From contig JAZDOD010000008.1 of NCBI GenBank assembly GCA_043798995.1, positions 119,468 to 183,467 on the forward strand: 64,000 nt of DNA, read 5' to 3'. Numbering within the stretch: position 1 is the first letter of the stretch; the number at the start of each line of letters is the position of its first letter. The translations under genes were made by a program, and so were the position numbers. Positions 2,617-29,109 of the stretch are shown in pieces. Under the pieces are notes generated by a model, which was not told where the DNA came from, did no database searches, and was given only the letters and a program-made list of their open reading frames with translations. This DNA comes from a bacterium (GTDB taxonomy: Bacteria; Patescibacteriota; Patescibacteriia; JAACEG01; JAGUWE01).

Positions 2617-3711
2617 TTAGTAAATCAGATTTTTATCATGCACGCCCCTCAAGGCTAAGCCAAGCGCAGTAGTAAATTTAAGAGCCAAGCATTGATCGAA
2701 GGACTTATAAGTTCTGCCAATATTAACAAGGGGATTAGCTTTTTTGATATTTTTACCCAAAACAGTTTTTAGATTTTCTTCCAAGCCGCTTAAATTGGCT
2801 CCGCCTCCGCAAATGACAAGCTCGTTTATTTCTTGAGCTTCGGTAAAATGGTCTTTATAAAAGTTAATCGCTTCTTTTATTTTTTGGATTAAATGTTTGG
2901 TATTATCAGTCAATATTTCAGTTAAAATTGTCTGACATTCTTTATTTATACTACAAACAATTTTGGCTTTCTCGGCTTGTTCAAGAGAAATATTTAGGCG
3001 TTTGGCAATAGTTTCGGTTAAAATTTTGCCGGAAATCGGCAAACTGACGGTAAATTTTATATTATTCTGATCAAAAATAATAAGACTCGTTCTGACTCGG
3101 CCAAAGTCAATAATCATTTTTGCCCCGACATCTTGATTTTTATTGATCGGAAAAAGACTGCGGATGATTGCCATTGATTCAATTTCCAAAGCCACCGGTT
3201 CAAAACCGCAATATTTTAGCACCCCCAGATAATTATTAACTATGCTTTTGGGAGCAGCGCCAATCAGAATTTCAGTTGAGTTAGCGGTTTTACTAACTAC
3301 TTGCCAGTCCAGATATATTTCCTTGATTGGCAGGGGAATGTGTTCTTCGGTTTCGCGGCTGATTATCTCCGGAATTATTAACTCGCCTTTATCATATTTT
3401 TTTTCTTTAAGTTCCGAGCTTTCCGATTCAATTTTAATCCATTTAATAAATGTTTTCGGCTCAGGCAGAACCGAAATTACATTTTTGGTTTTAATTTTTT
3501 TGCCATTGATTTTCTTAAAAAGCAATTCCACACTTTTTTTGAATTGTTCCTGGTCTCGAATTTCGCCATGCTGAATACAGCCCTCCGGCAGATCTACGCT
3601 GCTAAAAGAAGTTAATTTAACAATTTTGCCGATTTTTTTTAGCTGAACTAATTTTAAAGTTAGTTCTCCAATATCCAGAGCAAAGGGCAAATTTTTTAAT
3701 ATTAAGGACAT
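2617..3711 (-). CDS. pilM: type IV pilus assembly protein PilM (actin-like ATPase fold)
   Basis: 364 aa with an FtsA/PilM-like fold and motifs (LVICGGGANLSGL, DIGELTLKLVQL), in operon context. Confidence 0.7.
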   Translation of the reverse strand: MSLILKNLPFALDIGELTLKLVQLKKIGKIVKLTSFSSVDLPEGCIQHGEIRDQEQFKKSVELLFKKINGKKIKTKNVISVLPEPKTFIKWIKIESESSELKEKKYDKGELIIPEIISRETEEHIPLPIKEIYLDWQVVSKTANSTEILIGAAPKSIVNNYLGVLKYCGFEPVALEIESMAIIRSLFPINKNQDVGAKMIIDFGRVRTSLIIFDQNNIKFTVSLPISGKILTETIAKRLNISLEQAEKAKIVCSINKECQTILTEILTDNTKHLIQKIKEAINFYKDHFTEAQEINELVICGGGANLSGLEENLKTVLGKNIKKANPLVNIGRTYKSFDQCLALKFTTALGLALRGVHDKNLIY

Positions 3712-5176: not shown

Positions 5177-5778
5177 AAATTGTCTTTCAAATTTCTAATT
5201 TGAATATCGGTTTCTAAATTATATTGCTGGGGTGATTTGCCGGGCTTGATATCAACTTTAAGGTAAGCGTGGACTAATCTGATTAAATTTTTGTCAATTG
5301 GTTGAGTTAATTGGTTGTTGCTACCATCAAAATAAGTAAAGATCGGAGTTGTTAGATTATTGACATAGCCGGCAATAAGAGTAATAACCTCGTTTTGGAC
5401 AAGATATTCGGCCGGCGAGCCGGTTGGGTCAATCACCCCTTTATTTAAATCAGTGCCGTTTAAAAAATAACGGACCCGTTCGGCCGAGCCATCACCATCA
5501 ATGTCAGAATAAAAAGTCAGGTTCTGCGCACCGGCATCCTCAATTAAATAGTCGCCGCGGTCGCTGGCAATTGCTTCGCGGATTTCCTTGGTCATAACTT
5601 CCAAACCATCGCGGGCGCTTTTGACTTGATAATCCAATTCAGAGCCAAAAGTACTGATCCGATAACCCTGAATAAAAAATGCCGTTGCCATACCAACAAC
5701 CATAACAAAAATACCAAGACTGATTATCATTTCTAAAAGAGTAAATCCAGCTTGATTTTTTAAAATTTTTAAATTCAT
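5173..5778 (-). CDS. type IV prepilin-like pseudopilin (N-methylation motif)
   Basis: Class III signal KNQAG/FTLLEMIISLGIF. Confidence 0.7.
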   Translation of the reverse strand: MNLKILKNQAGFTLLEMIISLGIFVMVVGMATAFFIQGYRISTFGSELDYQVKSARDGLEVMTKEIREAIASDRGDYLIEDAGAQNLTFYSDIDGDGSAERVRYFLNGTDLNKGVIDPTGSPAEYLVQNEVITLIAGYVNNLTTPIFTYFDGSNNQLTQPIDKNLIRLVHAYLKVDIKPGKSPQQYNLETDIQIRNLKDNL

Positions 5779-18996: not shown

Positions 18997-19962
18997 ATGC
19001 CGAGATGTTTTTACTTTCCTAAAACACGGAGCAAGCAATTGTCGAAGGGATTCAACTCTTCTTTATCAAACGTGATTGATGATCTAAACTGGCGTTTCGA
19101 CAAGACACAACGAACTAAAGCAGAAGAGAAGCACTTTAAACACGACAGAAAAAATTTGCACGAGAAGATAAAAGCAGAAACAGGAGGAGATACGATCAAA
19201 AAAACCATAGATGCGACTAACGAAATATTAAAAAAGTTAAGAATAGATGAAATCGACATAAGCCTATTTAAAACTTTGACTCCATATGATAGTGCCGAAC
19301 TCGTTTTCCCTTTTGATGGTTTTGAACTACCAATTGGACAAGGTGGCTCAGGTATAGAAATGGCCGTTGCTATTGCGTTTTTAGAGTCATTAGCAAAGAT
19401 TTCAAAAGAAGACATCGTTATTGTAATTGATGAGCCAGAATTGCACCTACACCCAACACTTCAAGAGAAGATTTTTAATCATTTCAAAGAAATATCGAGC
19501 GAAATTCAGATTATCGTTTCAACTCATTCGCCCTTTTTGTTTAGGAATGTTTATCAAAACAGTAAAGTTCAGTTGCTTTTAACAAAAAATGAAAGTGATA
19601 AAATCCTAATCCAAGACGCCAGGTCTTCTGAATTTGGGTTGTTAAATTGGAGTCCATCGTGGGGAGAAATATGTTATTTTTCTTACGATTTGCCGACAAT
19701 TGAATTCCACGATGATTTATATGCGAGTTTGCAGGACAAAAACGGAACGGAAAGTATCGCTGCAACAGAAACTTGGTTGATAGCTAATGGGCAAGCAAAG
19801 GAAATTAAATGGAAAGACGACAAAGACATTCAACAAGAAGAAACTTTAATGACCTATATAAGAAACAGAATCCATCACGGCGATAATCAAAATAGGCCAA
19901 TGTATTCTCCCGAACAGTTGAGAGATTCAATAGCGCGAATGATTACTTTACTAAAACTATGA
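18997..19962 (+). CDS. ABC/AAA_21-type ATPase, C-terminal part (signature, Walker B, H-loop) with an HEPN-like RNRIHH tail
   Basis: GQGGSGIEMAVAIAF, IVIVIDEPELHLHP and IIVSTHSP motifs. It is in a different frame from 18513-18953. Confidence 0.55.
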   Translation: MPRCFYFPKTRSKQLSKGFNSSLSNVIDDLNWRFDKTQRTKAEEKHFKHDRKNLHEKIKAETGGDTIKKTIDATNEILKKLRIDEIDISLFKTLTPYDSAELVFPFDGFELPIGQGGSGIEMAVAIAFLESLAKISKEDIVIVIDEPELHLHPTLQEKIFNHFKEISSEIQIIVSTHSPFLFRNVYQNSKVQLLLTKNESDKILIQDARSSEFGLLNWSPSWGEICYFSYDLPTIEFHDDLYASLQDKNGTESIAATETWLIANGQAKEIKWKDDKDIQQEETLMTYIRNRIHHGDNQNRPMYSPEQLRDSIARMITLLKL

Positions 19963-19993
19963 ACGAATTTTCTGAAGACAAATTAACCCCCGT
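19963..19993 (+). other. duplicated remnant of the hsdR 5' end (MNEFSEDKL...)
   Basis: ATGAACGAATTTTCTGAAGACAAATTAA here matches ATGAGCGAGTTTTCCGAAGACAAATTAA at 21665. It overlaps the upstream stop in an ATGA arrangement. Confidence 0.6.
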
Positions 19994-20230
19994 CTTGTGC
20001 GAAATACCATAACTAGCCAAGTTGTGGTGGTAAATTGAGCAAACAATCAAGCGTATAGAAACTGTCTAAAATGTGTCTAAATTAGACACTTGCAAAATAC
20101 TATACAAGAAAACACCGGTTTTTACGCTTAAAATAAGGGCAAAATAGGCAATGGCGCGTCTCTTGTAATGTATAGTTGACAAGAGATGGGCGTTTCTTGT
20201 AAACTTAAATAATCAAACAATACAAGAGTT

Positions 20231-21661
20231 ATGAACGAAGAAAGGAAAGAAAAATTATACCAATTTGTGCGCGACCAAATAGCACAGGGCGTTTTTCGCA
20301 CTCGTGCCTATGTTTTCAACGACCGTGGAGAGCGTAATCCACAAAGGAGTATGTTTTTGCGCATACAAAAATATGTCCATGATTTTATGGGCGGCAATGC
20401 TTCCGTGCGCTGGTTGGTCATGCCGGGTCTTCGCGGGTCCGGCAAGACAACTCTTTTGGCACAGTTATATCACGATACGGATGTACCAATAGAACGCAAA
20501 TTATTCTTGTCGGTGGATCAAGTTACCCAGACATTCGGCGCCTCACTGCAAGAAATTATTCAGGTATACGAAGAAGCGGTTGGTGGTTCGTTTGAGCGGC
20601 TGGAAGAACCGGTATTTTTATTTCTTGATGAAGTGCAATATGATCGTCGCTGGGCCGGATTTTTAAAAACCGTATATGACCGAACTCGGAAAGTTTTTAT
20701 TACTGCGACTGGTTCTTCTGCTCTGATGTTCAATATAAACGCGGATGTTGCTCGTCGAGCTGTATCGGAAAAATTGTATCCTATGAGTTTTACGGAATTT
20801 ATGAAAATCAAACACAATAAATATGAAGAAAAAGGATTGGGGCGAGAATTAAGACAAGCATTGCTGGATTCCAAATCAGCGCAAGAAGTTTATGATCAAC
20901 TTATATCATGCGGGGAAACAGTGAGGCACTATTGGCTGAATGTTGAACGCCAAGAAATAACGCACTATATCAATTACGGCACATTGCCGTATATGGTTGC
21001 TCTGAAAAATGAAGCTCTAGTATACGACCAAATTAAAAAATCGCTTGAGCGTGTTATTTCGGTTGATATTCCCCAAATTGGCAGATTTCGGCCAGATATT
21101 GCTTCAAAATTCCCGATGCTCTTATATGCGATAGCTGATTCAGAGCAGCTTAGTCTAAATAATCTTTCGCGCGTTATGGAGATTGGGAGACCTACACTTA
21201 TGCACATGCTTGATGTTTTGGAGCAGACGGAAACAATAATGCGTGTATATCCGCATGGATCCCATCGATCACAAGTAAGAAAACCATCAAAATATTTATT
21301 CACGTCCCCCGCATTTCGCGCGATGTATTTTAAATTCATCGGTAGCACGCAACGACAAGAAATATACGAAGGCAAGTTGTTGGAAGATATTGTCGGATTG
21401 TATTTGGGGCGGCTTTGCGAACAGCGATCAATATCCCTTACTTATGATTCTGCCGCTGGCGGTGCGGATTTTATCGTGCGAGATAACAATGCCCTTATCG
21501 CAATTGAAGTGGGTCGTGGTCAAAAAGGATTTGAACAGGTGGCACGCACCGCTAAAAAGGTCAAAGCAAAATATGGATTGGTTATTTCTGCGTCAGAATT
21601 GAAAATAGATGTAAAACATTCTGCCGTTTCAGTTCCGTTAGAATTTTTTCTACTTATATAA
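20231..21661 (+). CDS. AAA+ ATPase of the DUF4143/COG1373 family
   Basis: Walker A GLRGSGKTTLL, Walker B FLFLDEVQY and a DUF4143-like C-terminal region. Confidence 0.75.
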   Translation: MNEERKEKLYQFVRDQIAQGVFRTRAYVFNDRGERNPQRSMFLRIQKYVHDFMGGNASVRWLVMPGLRGSGKTTLLAQLYHDTDVPIERKLFLSVDQVTQTFGASLQEIIQVYEEAVGGSFERLEEPVFLFLDEVQYDRRWAGFLKTVYDRTRKVFITATGSSALMFNINADVARRAVSEKLYPMSFTEFMKIKHNKYEEKGLGRELRQALLDSKSAQEVYDQLISCGETVRHYWLNVERQEITHYINYGTLPYMVALKNEALVYDQIKKSLERVISVDIPQIGRFRPDIASKFPMLLYAIADSEQLSLNNLSRVMEIGRPTLMHMLDVLEQTETIMRVYPHGSHRSQVRKPSKYLFTSPAFRAMYFKFIGSTQRQEIYEGKLLEDIVGLYLGRLCEQRSISLTYDSAAGGADFIVRDNNALIAIEVGRGQKGFEQVARTAKKVKAKYGLVISASELKIDVKHSAVSVPLEFFLLI

Positions 21662-21664
21662 AAT

Positions 21665-24600
21665 ATGAGCGAGTTTTCCGAAGACAAATTAATAGAGCAA
21701 ACTGCTATCAAATTTTTCGGCGAGCTTTGGTCCGCTTCCGCTAAAGCTACAGCGGACAAGGGCGCTGAGAATTTCGTGAATGCTTATTCAGACGAGGGTG
21801 ACGCACGACTCGGACGAGAAAACCAGGGGCAGGTTGTTTTGATGAAATATTTAAAACCAGCACTTGAACGATTCAACCCTGATGTATCTACCGAGGGCTT
21901 AAACCTCGCGATCGACGAGATTATAAAAGACCGCTCGGCGATGAGCATGGTGAATGCGAACCGTGAAGTATGGCAACTACTTCGGGACGGCGTAAGGGTT
22001 GAGACGGAAAATGAAAAAGGCGAACAACAGACCGAGACAGTAAAGATTATTGATTTTGAAAATCCAAAAGAAAATCACTTTATGCTCGTATCCCAGCTTT
22101 GGGTAACCGGCGAATTGCATAAACGCCGTCCCGACTTAATTGGCTTTGTAAACGGCTTGCCGCTTGTGCTGATTGAGCTGAAAGCATCGCACAAAAATCT
22201 TCGCAATGCCTACCAGCAAAACATTCGGGATTACAAAGACACGATTCCGCAGCTTTTTTGGTATAACGCTTTTATAATTATTTCCAATGGTATTGAAAGC
22301 AAAGTTGGCACAATTACCGGCGCGTATGAACATTTCAACGAATGGAAGAAAATCAAGGACGAAAAAGAGGTTGGAAAAGTAAGTTTGGAAACGGTAATCA
22401 AGGGCACCTGCGAACCAGCGCGGCTTTTGGATATTATTGAAAACTTTATTCTTTTTGACGACTCCCGCGGAGAACGCGCCAAAGCGATTGCCCGATATTT
22501 TCAATTTTTCGGAGTGAACCGTGCTTTTCTGCAAGTTCAAAATCGGGAAAAAAATAAGGGCCGCCTCGGTGTTTTCTGGCACACGCAAGGGTCCGGCAAA
22601 TCATATTCAATGGTTTTCTTGTCTCAAAAAGTGTTTCGTAAGCTGACCGGAAATTTTACTTTTGTCGTGGTCACAGACCGCAAGGAACTTGATAGGCAAA
22701 TATACAAGACCTTTGCCGCCTGTGGCGCTGTTTACGAAAACGAAGTCCATGCCGATTCCGTAGAACATCTTAAGCAACTGCTTAAAGAAGACCACCGCCA
22801 TGTTTTTACGCTTATCCATAAATTTGCCGAACCAAAAGAATTATCAAACAGAAGCGATGTGATTGTGATGGCCGATGAAGCGCATCGCACGCAATACGAC
22901 CGCATGGCGGCAAATATGCGCATTGCGTTGCCTAAGGCATCATTTCTTGGCTTTACCGGCACGCCCTTGATGGCTAGCGGTGAAGAAAAAACCCGAGAAG
23001 CTTTCGGTGATTATGTCTCAACATACAACTTCGCGCAGTCAGTAAAAGACGGAGCTACGGTTCCCCTTTATTACGAAAATCGTGTTCCAAAACTGGAGAA
23101 TGTAAATCCGGATATTCAGAAAGATTTGGAACGGGTAATGAATTTTTACGATCTTGCGCCGGAAGAAGAGGAAAAACTGGAACAAGAATTTTCAACTTTC
23201 TATCATCTGATAACCCGCGAGGATCGCTTGAATAAAGTCGCAGAAGATATTGTCGCGCACTTCACCGCTCGAGGATATAACGGAAAAGCAATGGTTGTTT
23301 CTATTGATAAGAAAACGGCTATTCGAATGCACGCCAAAGTCAAAGAACAAATGCAACGCCATTTGGCAAAATTGAATATAGCTTTATCCAAAGCTGCTGA
23401 CGAACATGAAAAAGAAAAGATTCGGCAAATCATAGAACAATACGAAGGAATTGATATGGCAGTAGTGGTAAGCCAAGGCCAGAATGAAATCGCCGACATG
23501 GAAGAATTTGAGATTGATATGAGGCCGCTTAGAGCTCGTATGCAAAATGAAGATTTGGAAACCAAATTTAAAGATCCCGACAGCAACCTACGCATTGTCT
23601 TTGTTTGTGCAATGTGGATTACCGGTTTTGATGTTCTCAACCTTTCAACGCTCTACCTTGATAAGCCGCTTAAGAATCACACACTGATGCAGACCATCGC
23701 CCGCGCTAATCGAGTATATCCGGGTAAAACAAACGGCCTTATTGTTGACTACATCGGCGTATTTAGAAATATTCAAAGAGCCCTCGCAATTTATGCTACT
23801 CCGGAGAGCGGCGCGTCAATCGACGACATTATTAAAGAAAAAGAAGCACTCGTTGAGTTGTTGGTTTCAACCGCCACACAGACGAGAGGATTCTTAAAAA
23901 AGCTTGATCTTGATGTTGATAAATTGCTGAAAGCAAAAGACGCAGAAAAGATACGCCTTGTTGATGTATTCACAAATCGTATTTTGCAGGACGAACAGAC
24001 GAAGAAGAGATATCTTGATTTTGCGTCAGATGTCTACCAACTTTACAAAGCGGTATTGCCCGAGCCCAAGGCGGAAGATTATTATCAAGAAGTTATGGCC
24101 TTTAAAGTGATCGCTTCTCGTATTAAAGAAGTCATTGAGGAAGAAGCTGATGTCAGTCAAGTAAAAAAAGACCTTGAGGATTTGCTTGACCGTTCTATAA
24201 AGGCGGGAGAGTTTGTAATCAAGGAGCCAAAACTGAAAGATTTAAGTCATATTGACTTTGAAGCGCTCCGGAAATTTTTTGACGACACTGAAAACAAAAA
24301 CATTGCCGCTGAAAGTTTAAGTGCCGAGCTTGAAGAAAAAATCAAAGAAATGGCGCGGAAAAATAAGATCCGCAAACATTTTCTTGATCGTCTTAATTTA
24401 TTGATTAACGAGTACAATTCCGGCTCTCGCGATCTCGACTCATTTTTTGAAGAACTTCTCGCACTCGCAAAAGAATTAAGCGAGGAAGATCGCCGGGCGA
24501 TAAAAGAAAACCTCACGGAGGAGGAATTGGCGATATTCGATCTTCTTGCGAAGGAAAATCTTAACCCCGATGAAGTGGAGAAAGTGAAAAAAGTTGCGCT

Positions 24601-24820
24601 TGAGTTGTTGGCTAAACTTAAAGCAGAAAAGTTTGTCTTGGATTGGAAGCGGAAAGAGGAAACGCGGGCTGATGTGAAAATAACAATCCGGGATATGCTA
24701 TATGATAATTTGCCCGAGCCAGCGTACTCCGAACAAGATTGCGAAGACCGGACACAAAAAGTTTATTTCCATGTTTACGACAATTATGTGGACGCAAAAA
24801 TTAATGTTTACGCGCAGTAG
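21665..24820 (+). CDS. hsdR: type I restriction enzyme R subunit HsdR
   Basis: N-terminal PD-(D/E)xK motif (VLIELKAS), helicase motif I (HTQGSGKS), DEAH box (VIVMADEAHRTQY) and later helicase motifs. Confidence 0.9.
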   Translation: MSEFSEDKLIEQTAIKFFGELWSASAKATADKGAENFVNAYSDEGDARLGRENQGQVVLMKYLKPALERFNPDVSTEGLNLAIDEIIKDRSAMSMVNANREVWQLLRDGVRVETENEKGEQQTETVKIIDFENPKENHFMLVSQLWVTGELHKRRPDLIGFVNGLPLVLIELKASHKNLRNAYQQNIRDYKDTIPQLFWYNAFIIISNGIESKVGTITGAYEHFNEWKKIKDEKEVGKVSLETVIKGTCEPARLLDIIENFILFDDSRGERAKAIARYFQFFGVNRAFLQVQNREKNKGRLGVFWHTQGSGKSYSMVFLSQKVFRKLTGNFTFVVVTDRKELDRQIYKTFAACGAVYENEVHADSVEHLKQLLKEDHRHVFTLIHKFAEPKELSNRSDVIVMADEAHRTQYDRMAANMRIALPKASFLGFTGTPLMASGEEKTREAFGDYVSTYNFAQSVKDGATVPLYYENRVPKLENVNPDIQKDLERVMNFYDLAPEEEEKLEQEFSTFYHLITREDRLNKVAEDIVAHFTARGYNGKAMVVSIDKKTAIRMHAKVKEQMQRHLAKLNIALSKAADEHEKEKIRQIIEQYEGIDMAVVVSQGQNEIADMEEFEIDMRPLRARMQNEDLETKFKDPDSNLRIVFVCAMWITGFDVLNLSTLYLDKPLKNHTLMQTIARANRVYPGKTNGLIVDYIGVFRNIQRALAIYATPESGASIDDIIKEKEALVELLVSTATQTRGFLKKLDLDVDKLLKAKDAEKIRLVDVFTNRILQDEQTKKRYLDFASDVYQLYKAVLPEPKAEDYYQEVMAFKVIASRIKEVIEEEADVSQVKKDLEDLLDRSIKAGEFVIKEPKLKDLSHIDFEALRKFFDDTENKNIAAESLSAELEEKIKEMARKNKIRKHFLDRLNLLINEYNSGSRDLDSFFEELLALAKELSEEDRRAIKENLTEEELAIFDLLAKENLNPDEVEKVKKVALELLAKLKAEKFVLDWKRKEETRADVKITIRDMLYDNLPEPAYSEQDCEDRTQKVYFHVYDNYVDAKINVYAQ

Positions 24821-24844
24821 TTTGTGAGGTATATTCGAAGTTGA

Positions 24845-24997
24845 AATAGTGAAGTACCTATCCCACCTCTCAAAACCCAAAAACAAATTGTCGCCAAACT
24901 TTCCGCGGCCCAGGATTATAAAAAACAGCTTTTTGAACAGCGAACTAAATTGAAAGAATTATTTGATAGCGTCCTCCACAAATCTTTCAACGCCTAA
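24845..24997 (+). pseudogene. hsdS: hsdS remnant (C-terminal conserved region only)
   Basis: Translates to PIPPLKTQKQIVAKLSAAQDYKKQLFEQRTKLKELFDSVLHKSFNA, the conserved HsdS repeat region, with no TRD. Confidence 0.5.
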
Positions 24998-25047
24998 TAA
25001 CATACCAACAAACTTGAGAATGTTGGGATATTGTATATAATAAAAAT

Positions 25048-25332
25048 ATGGGGAAAATGAAAACCGCAAAACAAATGGAGCGACACCTTAAAGGTATGGC
25101 GAATCATTACCGTATTGAGATACTGCTTCTTATTGCCGAACGCGATGGAATAACGCTTGAAGATATTGTTGAAACACTCGGCGCCAACGAGAAGACTATA
25201 GGCGAGCACACGCGACGACTCTTTCAGGCGGGACTTATCAATAAAAAGTACCGCGGCAAATTTGTAGAGCACACGCTGTCGCCATACGGAAAAACATTCG
25301 TCAGCTTTCTCAAATCATTTCAACGTATATAA
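25048..25332 (+). CDS. ArsR/SmtB-family small HTH regulator (paralog 1)
   Basis: MANHYRIEIL...TIGEHTRRLFQAGLI HTH. It is flanked by 24-bp direct repeats at 25009-25032 and 25344-25367. Confidence 0.7.
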   Translation: MGKMKTAKQMERHLKGMANHYRIEILLLIAERDGITLEDIVETLGANEKTIGEHTRRLFQAGLINKKYRGKFVEHTLSPYGKTFVSFLKSFQRI

Positions 25333-25394
25333 CAACATCCTTACAAACTTGAGAATGTAAGGATATTTTAAACTTAAATATAAATAAGATAAAG

Positions 25395-25510
25395 ATTCCG
25401 TTACTGCCTCTCGAAACCCAAAAACAAATCGTTGAAAAACTCTCCGCGGCGCAGGAATACCCCAGTAGTAGAACGCAAAGCGTTCACTACGGGGCAGGCA
25501 AAAAAAAATA
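25395..25510 (+). pseudogene. hsdS: second orphan hsdS conserved-region fragment
   Basis: Translates to KIPLLPLETQKQIVEKLSAAQEY. It shares about 85% nucleotide identity with 24866-24918. Confidence 0.4.
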
Positions 25511-25549
25511 AGGAGAGAAGATCATTGTTAACTTAAAAAATTTAGGCGT

Positions 25550-26038
25550 ATGAAAAAGAAAGAAAACAATTTCGCGTTTATAGACGGCCAAAACCTTAAT
25601 CTCGGCATTCAAAGCTTGGGCTGGAAATTGAATTATTGGCGTTTTAGAAAATATCTTGCGGAAAAATATTCGGTAGCAACGGCGTATTACTTTATCGGTT
25701 ATGTAGCCGGTAACCAGCCGCTTTATTCCGAACTGCAAAAAGCCGGCTATGTGTTGGTGTTTAAGCCAACCATTCCAGATGGTGATGGAAATGTAAAGGG
25801 CAATATAGATGCCGATCTGGTTTTACAGGTGATGATTGATTTTCCAAATTATGATCAGGCAATCATTGTTTCAAGTGACGGAGATTTTTATTCGCTGGTA
25901 AAACATCTTTATCAAAACAATAAGCTGCGTTTTGTGATGAGTCCGTATATCAAAACTTGCTCAACTTTACTGAAAAAGGAAGCAAAAGAGAGAATTGTAT
26001 TTATGGATAATTTGCGAAAAAAGCTTGAATATAAATGA
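25550..26038 (+). CDS. NYN (LabA-like PIN) domain protein
   Basis: FIDGQNL at the N-terminus and IVSSDGDFYSLVKHL later, both NYN hallmarks. Confidence 0.7.
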   Translation: MKKKENNFAFIDGQNLNLGIQSLGWKLNYWRFRKYLAEKYSVATAYYFIGYVAGNQPLYSELQKAGYVLVFKPTIPDGDGNVKGNIDADLVLQVMIDFPNYDQAIIVSSDGDFYSLVKHLYQNNKLRFVMSPYIKTCSTLLKKEAKERIVFMDNLRKKLEYK

Positions 26039-26278
26039 AAAAGCACCGCTCGAGGACGAAACCTAAAGAGGTGCTCTCTCCTGTGAATTCTAATTAAAGA
26101 ATATTCCTATTATCAAATTTTGTCAAGTCTAAAAAATGTGGATAACTAAAAATTCGAAAAATCCGAGAAATAAAGCCAAAATTGGTTGAACCCCGAAGCA
26201 GTCCGACGCAAGGTCGGACACTACGGGGCAGGCAAAAAGTTGAACCCTTCGGTATACTCAAGGTGAAAAAATAAAATT

Positions 26279-26605
26279 ATGGAAAATGGAAAAGAGGACC
26301 AAATAATTAAAAAAATTGAAGAATTTTTTGAAGTTCCGGAGAGGGTTGCCGATAAAGTCAAAAATGTAGCAGAAAAAGTTAAGGGTGGTTATGTTTTGTT
26401 TGAAACGCGGCCTTGCTGGGACAGTTCTCCCGGCCCCTGGACTAAATTACCGGTGGCTAAAATTGTTTTTCATAAATCCACTCAAATCCGGAAGCTTTAT
26501 TGGATGCGGGCTTCTGGCAAATGGGAGCTTTATGGGCAATACAAAACATTAAACAGGGTTCTGAGGACAATAGAAGAAGATAAACACGGCTGTTTTTGGG
26601 GTTAA
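26279..26605 (+). CDS. hypothetical protein (Trp-rich, about 108 aa)
   Basis: Good coding statistics and an AAGGTGA Shine-Dalgarno sequence. No family recognised. Confidence 0.4.
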   Translation: MENGKEDQIIKKIEEFFEVPERVADKVKNVAEKVKGGYVLFETRPCWDSSPGPWTKLPVAKIVFHKSTQIRKLYWMRASGKWELYGQYKTLNRVLRTIEEDKHGCFWG

Positions 26606-26670
26606 TTCATAATTTAACAACATTCTCATATTCTGCAGAATATAAGAATGTGTGATATAATGGAATTGGT

Positions 26671-26955
26671 ATGAAAACAAAAACGGCAAAACAATTAGAG
26701 AGACACTTCAAAGGCATGGCGAATCATCACCGTATTGAAATTCTGAGGTTAATTGCTGAAAACGAAGGCATCAGTTTGGAGAGTATTGCGGGAAGTTTGG
26801 ATTGTAATTTCAAAACCATTTCTGAGCATACTAGGAAATTAGTTCAAGCCGGGTTGGTTAATAAAAAGTATCACGGCAGAATGGTTGCTCATTCTCTCTC
26901 GCCTTACGGCAAAATTTTTTATGAGTTTGTAAAACATTTCCAGGTTTCTAAATAA
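26671..26955 (+). CDS. ArsR/SmtB-family small HTH regulator (paralog 2)
   Basis: About 60% identical to the 25048 protein. It is flanked by direct repeats containing the palindrome ATTCTGCAGAAT. Confidence 0.7.
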   Translation: MKTKTAKQLERHFKGMANHHRIEILRLIAENEGISLESIAGSLDCNFKTISEHTRKLVQAGLVNKKYHGRMVAHSLSPYGKIFYEFVKHFQVSK

Positions 26956-27037
26956 CATTAATAACATTCTCATACTCATATTCTGCAGAATGTTGGAATG
27001 TCAAAATTTAGAGAAAAAGTAAAATGGAAAATGGACT

Positions 27038-27778
27038 ATGAAAAAGGTTTTGATTATAATTTTTATTGGTTTAGTAATAATTTTGGTCTGGTTTTTGCTT
27101 CCTAAAAAGGAATCAACAAACCAAAATCAATTTATGGGAGAAAAAAATTATTCTTTTGATAAGAATGGTTATATGGTGCTTCCCGAGCCAAGAAAGGAAA
27201 GCAAAACATCAATCGAAGAGGCGCTTTTAAAAAGGCGGAGTATTAGAGAATATAAAGACGAAGCGTTAAGTCTAGAAGAAATTTCTCAAATTTTATGGTC
27301 AGCTCAAGGAATTACTGCTCCAGAGCAGGGCGGTCGAACCGCTCCTTCAGCTGGCGCCCTCTACCCCTTGGAAATCTATTTAGTAGTAAGAAAAGCAGAA
27401 AATCTTGAGCCGGCTGTTTATCACTATTTGCCCGATGGTCATAAAATAGAAAAAGTTTTAGAAGGAGATGTTAGCGAAGATTTAGCCAAGGCAGCTTTAA
27501 ATCAGATGTTTATAAAAGAGGCGCCAGCAAACATAGTAATTTCAGCAGTTTTTTCTCGGACTACCTCAAAATACGGCGAACGAGGTAATCAATATGTTTA
27601 TATGGAGGCTGGCCATGTTTCCCAAAATATTTATTTACAGGTTGAAAGTTTGGAATTGGGGACAGTATCAGTAGGAGCTTTTTCTGGCGAAGAAGTTAAA
27701 AGAATTTTAAACCTGCAAGAAGAAATCCCCCTATACATAATGCCGATTGGGAGGATTAATAAATCCCGCACCTTTTAG
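27038..27778 (+). CDS. membrane-anchored nitroreductase-family protein
   Basis: N-terminal TM. Nitroreductase fold motifs ([28 protein letters not shown]). Confidence 0.7.
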
Positions 27779-27990
27779 CGGGGTTTTAAACCCCATTGAA
27801 AGGATTTACTTTATATTCTTTCATCCCCGCAAAAAGTTCTAGGGTACTCGAGAAAGGGAATATAAAAATATCATACCCTCTAATTCGCGCGAATAAGGGA
27901 ATAAGGAGTTGTAGTTTTTAGCTTTGCACTTTTCCCGCTTTCAGCGGGATCCCGCCATCGGCGGTGATAATTTTTACTTTAATAATTATG

Positions 27991-29109
27991 AAAATCGGCA
28001 TTGACGCCAGAATGTATGCGCCGGAGTGCACTGGCATTAGCCGTTATATCAGGGAATTAACTTATCATCTTTTTGACATTGATAAAACTAACGAATATTT
28101 AATGTTTATGCTGGAGCCGGAATATTCTAAGTTTGAAGCCCCGAATGAAAAGGTTAAAAAAATCAAAGTTGATTCCTACTGGTACGGTTATAAAGAACAG
28201 TTAATCTTGCCTTGGCAGATGTTAAAAACTGGCTGTGATTTAATCCATTTTCCTAATTTTAATACCCCGCTAATTTATCCCAAAAAATCAGTTGTCACAG
28301 TTCATGATATTACGCCGTTTTTCTTTTCCGGGCACCGCCGTCAATCAAAATGGCGTGACCGGGCTTTCCGGCAGGTTTTTTCCCGTTCGGTCAAACGAGC
28401 GACTAAAGTTATAGCTGTTTCCGAAGCCACCAAAAAGGATATTATTAGATATTTCAAAATAGCTCCGGAAAAAATTGAGGTGATTTACAACGGTCTGGAC
28501 CAAAAGTTCTTTCGGAAATCTTCTCCCTCGGAGCTTCAAAAGTTAAAAGATAAATACAAAATCCGCAGCCCATTTATTTTATATGTCGGCGTTTGGCGAA
28601 ATCATAAAAATGTGATAGGATTATTAAAAGCATTCAAGCTAATTCTTGATAAATATCAGTGCGATTATCAGTTAGTTTTATTAGGCAAGGAGTTGCCTAA
28701 ATATCCAGATATCAGAAAAACCTGGCAGCAGTTAAATTTGGAAAAAAATTTGGTTTTACCCGGTTTTGTCAGCGATGAAGAACTGTTGCTTTTTTATCAG
28801 GCAAGTGATCTGCTTGTCATTCCCTCCTTGGCCGAGGGATTTGGTTTTACCGGACTGGAAAGCTTGGCTTCAGGCACGCCGGTGGCGGCTTCAAACATTG
28901 CGGCGCTTGAGGAAGTTTTGGGAGAAAGCGCTTCTTATTTTAATCCGCACCGCTTTGAAGAAATGGCCGAAGTTATTTTTAATTTACTGACCAATCAAAG
29001 TTTGCGTCAGGAAAAATTAGCCAAAGCCGAAAATCAGATTAAAAAATACAGCTGGTTAAAAAACGCCGAACAAACCTTAAAACTTTATCAAGACGTTTTG
29101 GAAAAATAA
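27991..29109 (+). CDS. glycosyltransferase family 4
   Basis: MKIGIDAR start, as in the 12695 gene, and C-terminal AEGFGFTGLESLASGTPV. Confidence 0.75.
   Translation, partial: KIGIDARMYAPECTGISRYIRELTYHLFDIDKTNEYLMFMLEPEYSKFEAPNEKVKKIKVDSYWYGYKEQLILPWQMLKTGCDLIHFPNFNTPLIYPKKSVVTVHDITPFFFSGHRRQSKWRDRAFRQVFSRSVKRATKVIAVSEATKKDIIRYFKIAPEKIEVIYNGLDQKFFRKSSPSELQKLKDKYKIRSPFILYVGVWRNHKNVIGLLKAFKLILDKYQCDYQLVLLGKELPKYPDIRKTWQQLNLEKNLVLPGFVSDEELLLFYQASDLLVIPSLAEGFGFTGLESLASGTPVAASNIAALEEVLGESASYFNPHRFEEMAEVIFNLLTNQSLRQEKLAKAENQIKKYSWLKNAEQTLKLYQDVLEK

Follow-up and report, generated by a model that had tools for sequence, protein, structure and literature searches.

A conserved winged-helix regulator gene bracketed by its putative palindromic operator in Parcubacteria

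We analyzed a 64,000-nt stretch of a Patescibacteriota genome (contig JAZDOD010000008.1, positions 119,468 to 183,467; hereafter the window) in which two small genes, arsR1 and arsR2, encode 94-aa winged-helix proteins, and each gene has a copy of a palindrome of about 34 nt on either side (Table 1). The unit of gene plus palindrome occurs in approximately 150 Parcubacteria loci, its anatomy is conserved, and the type of palindrome changes with the clade of the protein. It is most likely a conserved, hitherto undescribed repressor-operator system rather than a local duplication. For its mode of action we lean toward an ArsR-type repressor with a cognate palindrome over its own promoter, built as two 16-nt arms around 2 nt (16-2-16), and a second copy 3' of the gene that would gate or bound transcription toward the next, variable gene. 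We found no relevant description in the searchable literature for ArsR genes with palindromes in Parcubacteria or Patescibacteria, or for the motif string.

Sites A and B flank arsR1, and sites C and D flank arsR2. An initial annotation of this region, made from the DNA letters alone, had treated the repeats around the two genes as two separate types; all four are variant members of a single palindrome family. It had correctly described the repeats on both sides of arsR1 (24995-25035 and 25330-25370, 83% identical across 41 nt) and, at arsR2, a palindrome overlapped by an extended -10 element. Its coordinates for the sites of arsR2 were each one base low (26618 and 26962, instead of 26619 and 26963), and the core that it assigned to both downstream copies is instead common to sites A, 5' of arsR1, and D, 3' of arsR2 (AGAATGTTGG), with AGAATGTAAGG in site B. 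The latter has one mismatch relative to the family consensus. A degenerate 16-nt pattern of the core has exactly four matches in the window, all flanking arsR1 or arsR2, and none in the remaining 60 kb; the same pattern finds 352 sites in 160 related loci (730 kb) versus 6 in shuffled loci. A promoter scan identified TTGAGA-16-TATAAT at 25014-25041 (11/12 matches), and a weak promoter-like ATGTCA-16-TAAAAT at 26998-27025 overlaps the right end of site D. The -35-like TTGAGA within the upstream copy and the adjoining -10 indicate autoregulation of a near-leaderless mRNA; the autoregulation proposed initially would fit this promoter overlap.

We then examined how the unit is conserved. Database searches with arsR1 returned 2200 matches, the best 120 of which are 87-95% identical, and the family extends across Uhr-, Sung-, Lipton-, Ryan-, Giovannoni-, Kaiser-, Doudna-, Portnoy- and Nealsonbacteria, all Parcubacteria. 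Conservation was counted in 80 loci from species-representative genomes. Their 34-nt consensus, AACATCCTTACAAACTTGAGAATGTAAGGATGTT, is found about 49 nt 5' of the ATG and again 1-6 nt 3' of the stop codon. The initial proposal had hinged on the repeats recurring at orthologous loci, and they do: 70 of the 80 loci have sites on both sides of the regulator, six only upstream and four only downstream. In codon alignments of related loci, median protein identity is 0.79 and third-position identity 0.46; synonymous divergence (dS) is undefined in 60% of pairs and has a median of about 2 where defined, with a ratio of nonsynonymous to synonymous divergence (dN/dS) of about 0.065. The GC content at third codon positions of the regulator correlates with the overall GC content of the locus (r = 0.56). 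By these measures the regulator is vertically resident, old and constrained, with no recent spread, because its synonymous sites are saturated. The non-coding palindrome is near-invariant at many positions and is better conserved than synonymous sites, which argues for selection on the DNA site itself and not on the gene alone. A phage feature was considered and rejected, as only a single contig of the viral collection (IMG/VR) carries the gene with its sites. One locus (L064) has five tandem copies of the heptamer TAACGTA between the regulator stop codon and the downstream palindrome.

The palindromes fall into two types, AACATCC...GGATGTT (type 1) and AACATTC...GAATGTT (type 2), and the window carries one regulator of each type with its own sites. 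Across 156 units (the related loci plus the two in the window) the outer arms are type 1 in 84, type 2 in 71 and mixed in one. Metagenome relatives of arsR2 carry AACATTCCAACATTCT-NN-AGAATGTTGGAATGTT, and the nearest relatives (L090-L092) have the type of site C. Four substitutions accompany the change of site type: E48F and G52S, within or beside the recognition helix, K71R, on the wing, and Y21R. This co-variation bears out the initial description of the repeats as operator-like sites tied to the regulator; at the sequence level it is the strongest argument that the protein reads the palindrome, although it is confounded with phylogeny. The two clades represented in the window are old and apparently orthogonal. 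In locus L056, a perfect type-2 palindrome (AACATTCTGACATTCTGCAGAATGTCAGAATGTC, 5270-5303) lies 2 kb 3' of a type-1 regulator whose own sites form a type-1 array, suggesting that both site systems coexist in other genomes too.

The two proteins are paralogs, as first described (61/90 residues identical, 68%; E 1e-45). Both exceed the Pfam cutoff for the ArsR domain HTH_5 (PF01022) and also pass the MarR threshold (PF01047), so that within the winged-helix clan they cannot be assigned to ArsR exclusively. The closest solved structures are ArsR (6j05; E 8.8e-5 for arsR1), HlyU and CadC, with E values from 9e-5 to 3e-3, and exact-sequence look-ups of both proteins returned no record. ArsR/SmtB autorepressors use 12-2-12 inverted-repeat operators (SmtB, CzrA, CadC and ArsR, and the non-metal HlyU, BigR, NolR and SdpR). 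The window proteins resemble them in being small winged-helix proteins (about 95-120 aa in that family) with an HTH_5 domain and, at the sequence level, an imperfect palindromic operator over their own promoter, an architecture that suggests binding by two dimers. They differ in the sensing residues: neither the alpha-3N Cys motif nor the alpha-5 Asp/His/Glu site was found in arsR1 or arsR2, Cys is absent from arsR1 and represented by one non-conserved residue in arsR2, and the C-terminal helix has a single His. Their scores for the NCBIfam model HTH_metalloreg (NF033788, ArsR/SmtB) are 36.5 and 45.6 bits, under the cutoff of 55. The operator is also longer and, in approximately 88% of loci, recurs 3' of the gene, and no fixed resistance operon accompanies the unit, whose neighbors vary by genome.

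The two copies of the palindrome differ in their surroundings. A good -10 hexamer (at least 5/6 matches) follows directly on 67% of upstream copies, versus 11% of copies after the regulator, 16% of other sites and 5% of random positions. The central TTGAGA is found in 58% of upstream, 44% of post-regulator (p = 0.025) and 63% of other sites. Post-regulator copies are the more palindromic (13.9 of 17 pairs, versus 13.1 upstream and 13.3 at other sites) and more often have a T-rich tail (16%, versus 3% upstream, 11% at other sites and 2% at random positions). Their mismatches are more often G.U than A.C (86:52, p = 0.005), compared with 79:126 upstream and 23:57 at other sites. The orientation of the asymmetric center is biased alike in the three classes (TG:CA = 95:24, 62:21 and 39:7). 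Because of these differences in -10 elements, palindromicity, T tails and mismatches, the downstream copy fits the description of a second operator or 3' boundary, with some weak terminator character, better than that of a promoter for the following gene. In one locus (L185), arranged as site-regulator-site-ORF-site (ORF, open reading frame), converging gene ends flank the last site.

Genes on the same strand start within 200 nt of 269 sites, with a median gap of 16 nt from the end of the site to the ATG, and their starts are therefore near-leaderless. On the other side, stop codons of preceding genes touch or run into the sites, at a median distance of 1 nt. The commonest ORFs after sites, other than the regulator, encode TspO (7), DUF559/Vsr-like proteins (5), MnmA (4), acylphosphatase (4), NYN (3) and GNAT (3) proteins; PIF1, Mur ligase and arginyl-tRNA synthetase (ArgRS) also occur. 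Up to 3 kb from the regulator, extra copies of the site have a density of 0.03-0.2 per kb, and in 20-kb views sites are found solely at the regulator and the next unit. The initial annotation placed each downstream copy directly before the next gene. This holds for site D, which ends 35 nt before the nitroreductase ATG, but not for site B, which is separated from the NYN ATG by 182 nt that include a GC-rich hairpin and a fragment of hsdS. NYN genes also follow a regulator and site in L060, L100 and L146, which supports NYN as the downstream unit of site B despite the gap. The further claim that the downstream copy controls a cargo gene, as operator of its promoter, holds up weakly, given the low frequency of good -10 hexamers after downstream copies.

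In the mechanism that we favor, a minimal ArsR-family repressor without metal ligands would bind its own palindrome of about 34 bp as a dimer or a pair of dimers. At the upstream copy, where the -35 element is central and the -10 adjoins, transcription would start at the ATG or a few bases from it, and occupancy would silence the regulator's own promoter. The downstream copy, at or just past the stop codon, would be a second operator bracketing the gene. We infer that it most likely serves as a 3' boundary at which bound protein, together with an RNA hairpin in some loci, would limit transcription running on from the regulator into the next gene. It could instead form a repression loop with the upstream site. 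Either way, release of the repressor would be needed for expression of the neighboring accessory or defense gene, in the window NYN and the nitroreductase. A comparable arrangement is known from the looping or roadblock operator pairs gal OE/OI and lac O1/O2, where a second operator lies 3' of the promoter-proximal one, within or after the first gene. The present pair differs in belonging to another protein family and in enclosing the gene of its own regulator, with a near-constant spacing of about 335 bp and no helical phasing detected.

Several observations weigh against this mechanism. At 34 bp the site is long for a single ArsR dimer, and the AlphaFold2 model, built from a shallow alignment, is poor (mean predicted local distance difference test score, pLDDT, 57), with an order of helices compatible with a winged helix and a dimerization helix. 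The co-variation of protein and site is confounded with phylogeny because there are only two clades. The proposed role of the downstream copy finds no backing in site-to-site distances, which peak at 335 bp and have no clear periodicity, or in a scan of 24700-27200 for canonical intrinsic terminators, which found none. The 125 non-regulator ORFs after sites form 92 clusters and 117 Pfam families, with no coherent regulon or signal. Palindromes also occur in frame within the coding regions of TspO (in the loop between transmembrane helices TM2 and TM3) and MnmA, sites are more alike within a locus than between loci (28.0 vs 24.6 of 34 positions), and rearrangement junctions lie at sites, none of which a plain operator model requires.

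Some of these features would be expected if the palindrome were a self-propagating miniature element or recombination site, with the winged-helix protein as its cognate binder. Copies would spread by insertion or gene conversion, bracketed genes would be shuffled, deleted and duplicated, and regulation would be secondary. The in-frame copies favor this explanation, which we nevertheless consider unlikely. Those in TspO genes near the regulator (L010 4590-4623, L065 2259, L073 3580, L106 5959 and L133 5950) read KHPYILENVRML from a type-1 site in type-1 loci, or KHSNILENVRML from a type-2 site in type-2 loci, and other TspO genes are without the insert. In the tRNA 2-thiouridylase gene mnmA, directly 3' of the regulator, they occupy two different positions (L017 4412 and L058 3202). 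Rearrangements point the same way. In L026 the regulator and a site are followed by only the C-terminal half of TspO, as expected of a deletion between two sites. A 77-bp duplication in that locus (1449-1525 and 2951-3027, 97% identical), made up of a site with the promoter and the initial 28 nt of the regulator gene, flanks a 1.4-kb segment that encodes a MerR-like protein and DUF4325. Locus L176 is arranged as site-regulator-site-(hsdS-tail chimera)-site-regulator-site-MnmA, so that each element is bounded by sites. The junction of hsdS tail, TAA and site seen in the window at 24860-25032 recurs there with a type-1 site, and in L177 with a type-2 site after a type III res gene; L172 and L173 have a full HsdS, then a type-2 site, then a tail fragment. 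The likeness of sites within loci and the abutting stop codons also fit, and several metagenome contigs break inside the palindrome.

Other observations speak against a mobile element. The frequent families of the 125 site-following ORFs include no integrase, transposase, HUH enzyme or recombinase, and the list of window genes contains no integrase. The regulator, saturated at synonymous sites, is vertically resident, the sites are undispersed (4/4 in 64 kb at the regulator genes), and the arms of neighboring sites pair no better across the cassette than across the outside (12.95 vs 13.19 of 16). The TspO-internal site is kept in both clades and matches the local type, which fits a function equally well. 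In a broader form of this reading, the palindromes would be boundaries of an unrecognized gene-shuffling system of Parcubacteria, in which units (the regulator, defense genes, TspO, hsdS fragments) are gained, lost, duplicated or inserted in frame and the winged-helix protein acts as site-specific organizer. We regard this too as a doubtful prospect. It would parallel repetitive extragenic palindromes and their associated tyrosine transposases (REP/RAYT), or integron cassettes, functionally but without a known recombinase.

The likeness to REP/REPIN-RAYT systems lies in a gene flanked by its own cognate palindrome of about 35 nt, a palindrome type for each protein clade, and copies just past stop codons. 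The flanked gene here encodes a 94-aa HTH_5/MarR protein, not an HUH Y1 tyrosine transposase, and copies are few per locus and, in the 64 kb of the window and in the 20-kb views, local. Integron attC arrays are similar in that short arrays of diverse co-oriented genes lie between imperfect palindromes with stop codons close to the sites; they differ in having an integrase, whereas the present sites are near-perfect 34-nt palindromes without R/L boxes or cassette-type arm pairing, in short arrays of 2-6 sites. Rickettsia palindromic elements, of about 100-150 nt, occur in frame inside protein-coding genes. The in-frame palindromes reported here likewise lie in loops that tolerate extra residues, but they are 34-36 nt long and the family is associated with promoters and with one particular DNA-binding protein; the window itself holds no in-frame copy.

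Another explanation is that the palindromes act mainly as RNA, as terminator, 3'-stabilizing or processing hairpins, with the link to the regulator incidental or limited to promoter overlap. The position of sites at or right past stop codons agrees with this, as do the higher palindromicity, T-rich tails and G.U excess of downstream copies and the perfect 9-bp stem of site B followed by AUUUU. We judge it improbable nonetheless. Folding of the window sites is weak (-6.4 to -13.5 kcal/mol; site B -9.5, z -2.9; site A z -0.8), and no canonical terminator was detected. Rfam has no family for the palindromes, or for the GC-rich hairpins described below, at gathering or permissive thresholds. Upstream and other sites are biased oppositely, with A.C over G.U. 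Moreover, the sequence of the arms and not pairing alone is conserved across classes, half-site alleles mix without compensation, site type follows the protein clade, and upstream sites precede the predicted transcription start and hence lie outside the regulator's own mRNA.

The initial annotation had viewed the two units as a duplicating regulator-cargo mini-cassette inside a broken hsdS gene, for which the distance of 1.6 kb between paralogs of the same architecture and the hsdS conserved-region fragments on both sides of arsR1 would speak; a recent local duplication is nevertheless highly improbable and in effect refuted, since the genes are 62% identical in nucleotides and 0.41 at third positions with dS undefined (codon alignment), belong to two old clades with different palindromes, have their nearest relatives in other genomes (95% for arsR1, 83-85% for arsR2), and are followed by mutually unrelated cargo genes. 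An ancient duplication followed by divergence of the clades may account for the pair.

Both units lie in the right-hand part of a defense-type island (13861-27778) between two GT4 glycosyltransferase genes (12695-13849 and 27964-29109). The island comprises, in order, RadC, a nucleotidyltransferase/HEPN pair, an HsdM-HsdS fusion (16230-18509), a split AAA_15 gene, AAA_14/DUF4143, HsdR, the arsR1 unit, NYN, DUF3024, the arsR2 unit and the nitroreductase-family gene. PADLOC assigns the labels PDC-S01 to AAA_14 and PDC-S43 to DUF3024, and it flags the NYN gene as LabA-like. The AAA_15 (OLD/AbiEii-like) ATPase is encoded in two ORFs (18513-18953 and 18997-19962) matching the N- and C-terminal parts of the Pfam model, and is probably a disrupted gene within the type I restriction-modification cluster. 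A role of the regulators as restriction-modification controller (C) proteins with a C-box was rejected: they are ArsR-type and not Xre-type, the gene comes after hsdR, and most relatives are not beside restriction-modification genes.

That the units sit inside a broken hsdS stands only weakly: the tail fragments are real, but they lack starts and the same junction recurs in unrelated contexts. The hsdS tail may therefore have arrived with the module, and a break in situ is not needed. Homologs of the fragment at 24860-24997 are ORFs of 46-70 aa, some with PF01420, and in L179 the same tail ends a broken hsdS; a BLASTP comparison with the HsdM-HsdS fusion of the window found no similarity. Between the tandem regulators of L176, a chimeric 67-aa ORF (1198-1401) combines a TspO-like start (MRINN...) with the hsdS C-terminal conserved region at its end. 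The GC-rich hairpins are a second repeat family, ending in CACTACGGGGCAGGC(AAAAA), of which two identical 20-mers bracket the NYN gene. The GTTGAACCC pair around copy 2 resembles a target-site duplication around an insert of about 45 nt, and a third, inverted copy (13925-13939, minus strand) lies at the left island edge just past the GT4 gene.

Table 1. Positions of the regulator genes, palindromic sites and neighboring features in the window.
Feature	Position	Strand	Description
Type I hsdS C-terminal conserved-region fragment	24860-24997	+	Start-less; stop TAA adjoins site A; translation IPPLKTQKQIVAKLSAAQDYKKQLFEQRTKLKELFDSVLHKSFNA, then stop; Pfam Methylase_S weak (E 0.085)
Site A	24999-25032	+	Type-1 palindrome 5' of arsR1; core AACATACCAACAAACTTGAGAATGTTGGGATATT; -35-like TTGAGA at 25014-25019
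-10 TATAAT of arsR1	25036-25041	+	6 nt before ATG; near-leaderless mRNA predicted
arsR1	25048-25332	+	94-aa ArsR/MarR-type winged-helix protein, type-1 clade; Pfam HTH_5 26.5 bits (cutoff 22)
Site B	25334-25367	+	Type-1 palindrome from 2 nt past arsR1 stop; core AACATCCTTACAAACTTGAGAATGTAAGGATATT; perfect 9-bp stem, then ATTTT
Second hsdS conserved-region fragment	25395-25460	+	No start codon; truncated by GC-rich hairpin; 53-nt direct repeat, 85% identical to 24866-24918
GC-rich hairpin copy 1	25460-25504	+	Ends in CACTACGGGGCAGGCAAAAA; fold -21.6 kcal/mol, z -6.4
NYN-domain gene	25550-26038	+	Pfam NYN 2.4e-14, PADLOC NYN; candidate downstream unit of site B
GC-rich hairpin copy 2	26191-26238	+	Fold -27.1 kcal/mol; direct repeat GTTGAACCC on both sides (26185-26193, 26239-26247)
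DUF3024 gene	26279-26605	+	Pfam DUF3024 5.8e-25, PADLOC PDC-S43 8e-23; upstream neighbor of site C
Site C	26619-26652	+	Type-2 palindrome 5' of arsR2; arms AACATTCTCATATTCTG and CAGAATATAAGAATGTG, 16+16, 94% complementary
Extended -10 of arsR2	26651-26661	+	TGTGATATAAT; adjoins site C; read from sequence
arsR2	26671-26955	+	94-aa winged-helix paralog, type-2 clade; Pfam HTH_5 28.4 bits (cutoff 22)
Site D	26963-27002	+	Type-2 palindrome 3' of arsR2; 6-nt tandem duplication (CTCATA twice) displaces left arm
Nitroreductase-family (SagB-like) gene	27038-27778	+	Pfam Nitroreductase 3.3e-31, NCBIfam SagB domain; candidate downstream unit of site D

Nearly all members of the Candidate Phyla Radiation are uncultured, and for that reason, to our knowledge, hardly anything is known of how they control transcription. 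One small regulator family with a well-defined, near-invariant 34-bp site and two apparently orthogonal protein/site pairs, in approximately 150 loci, is a directly testable candidate for a repressor-operator system, with proteins of 94 aa and sites that can be synthesized. The site is a marker for promoters and near-leaderless starts in Parcubacteria genomes, and the family a handle on the silencing of adjacent accessory and defense genes. The repeats are also relevant for metagenome assembly because contigs break at the sites. If the palindromes drive rearrangement as well, this would help account for the assembly of variable islands in these reduced genomes.

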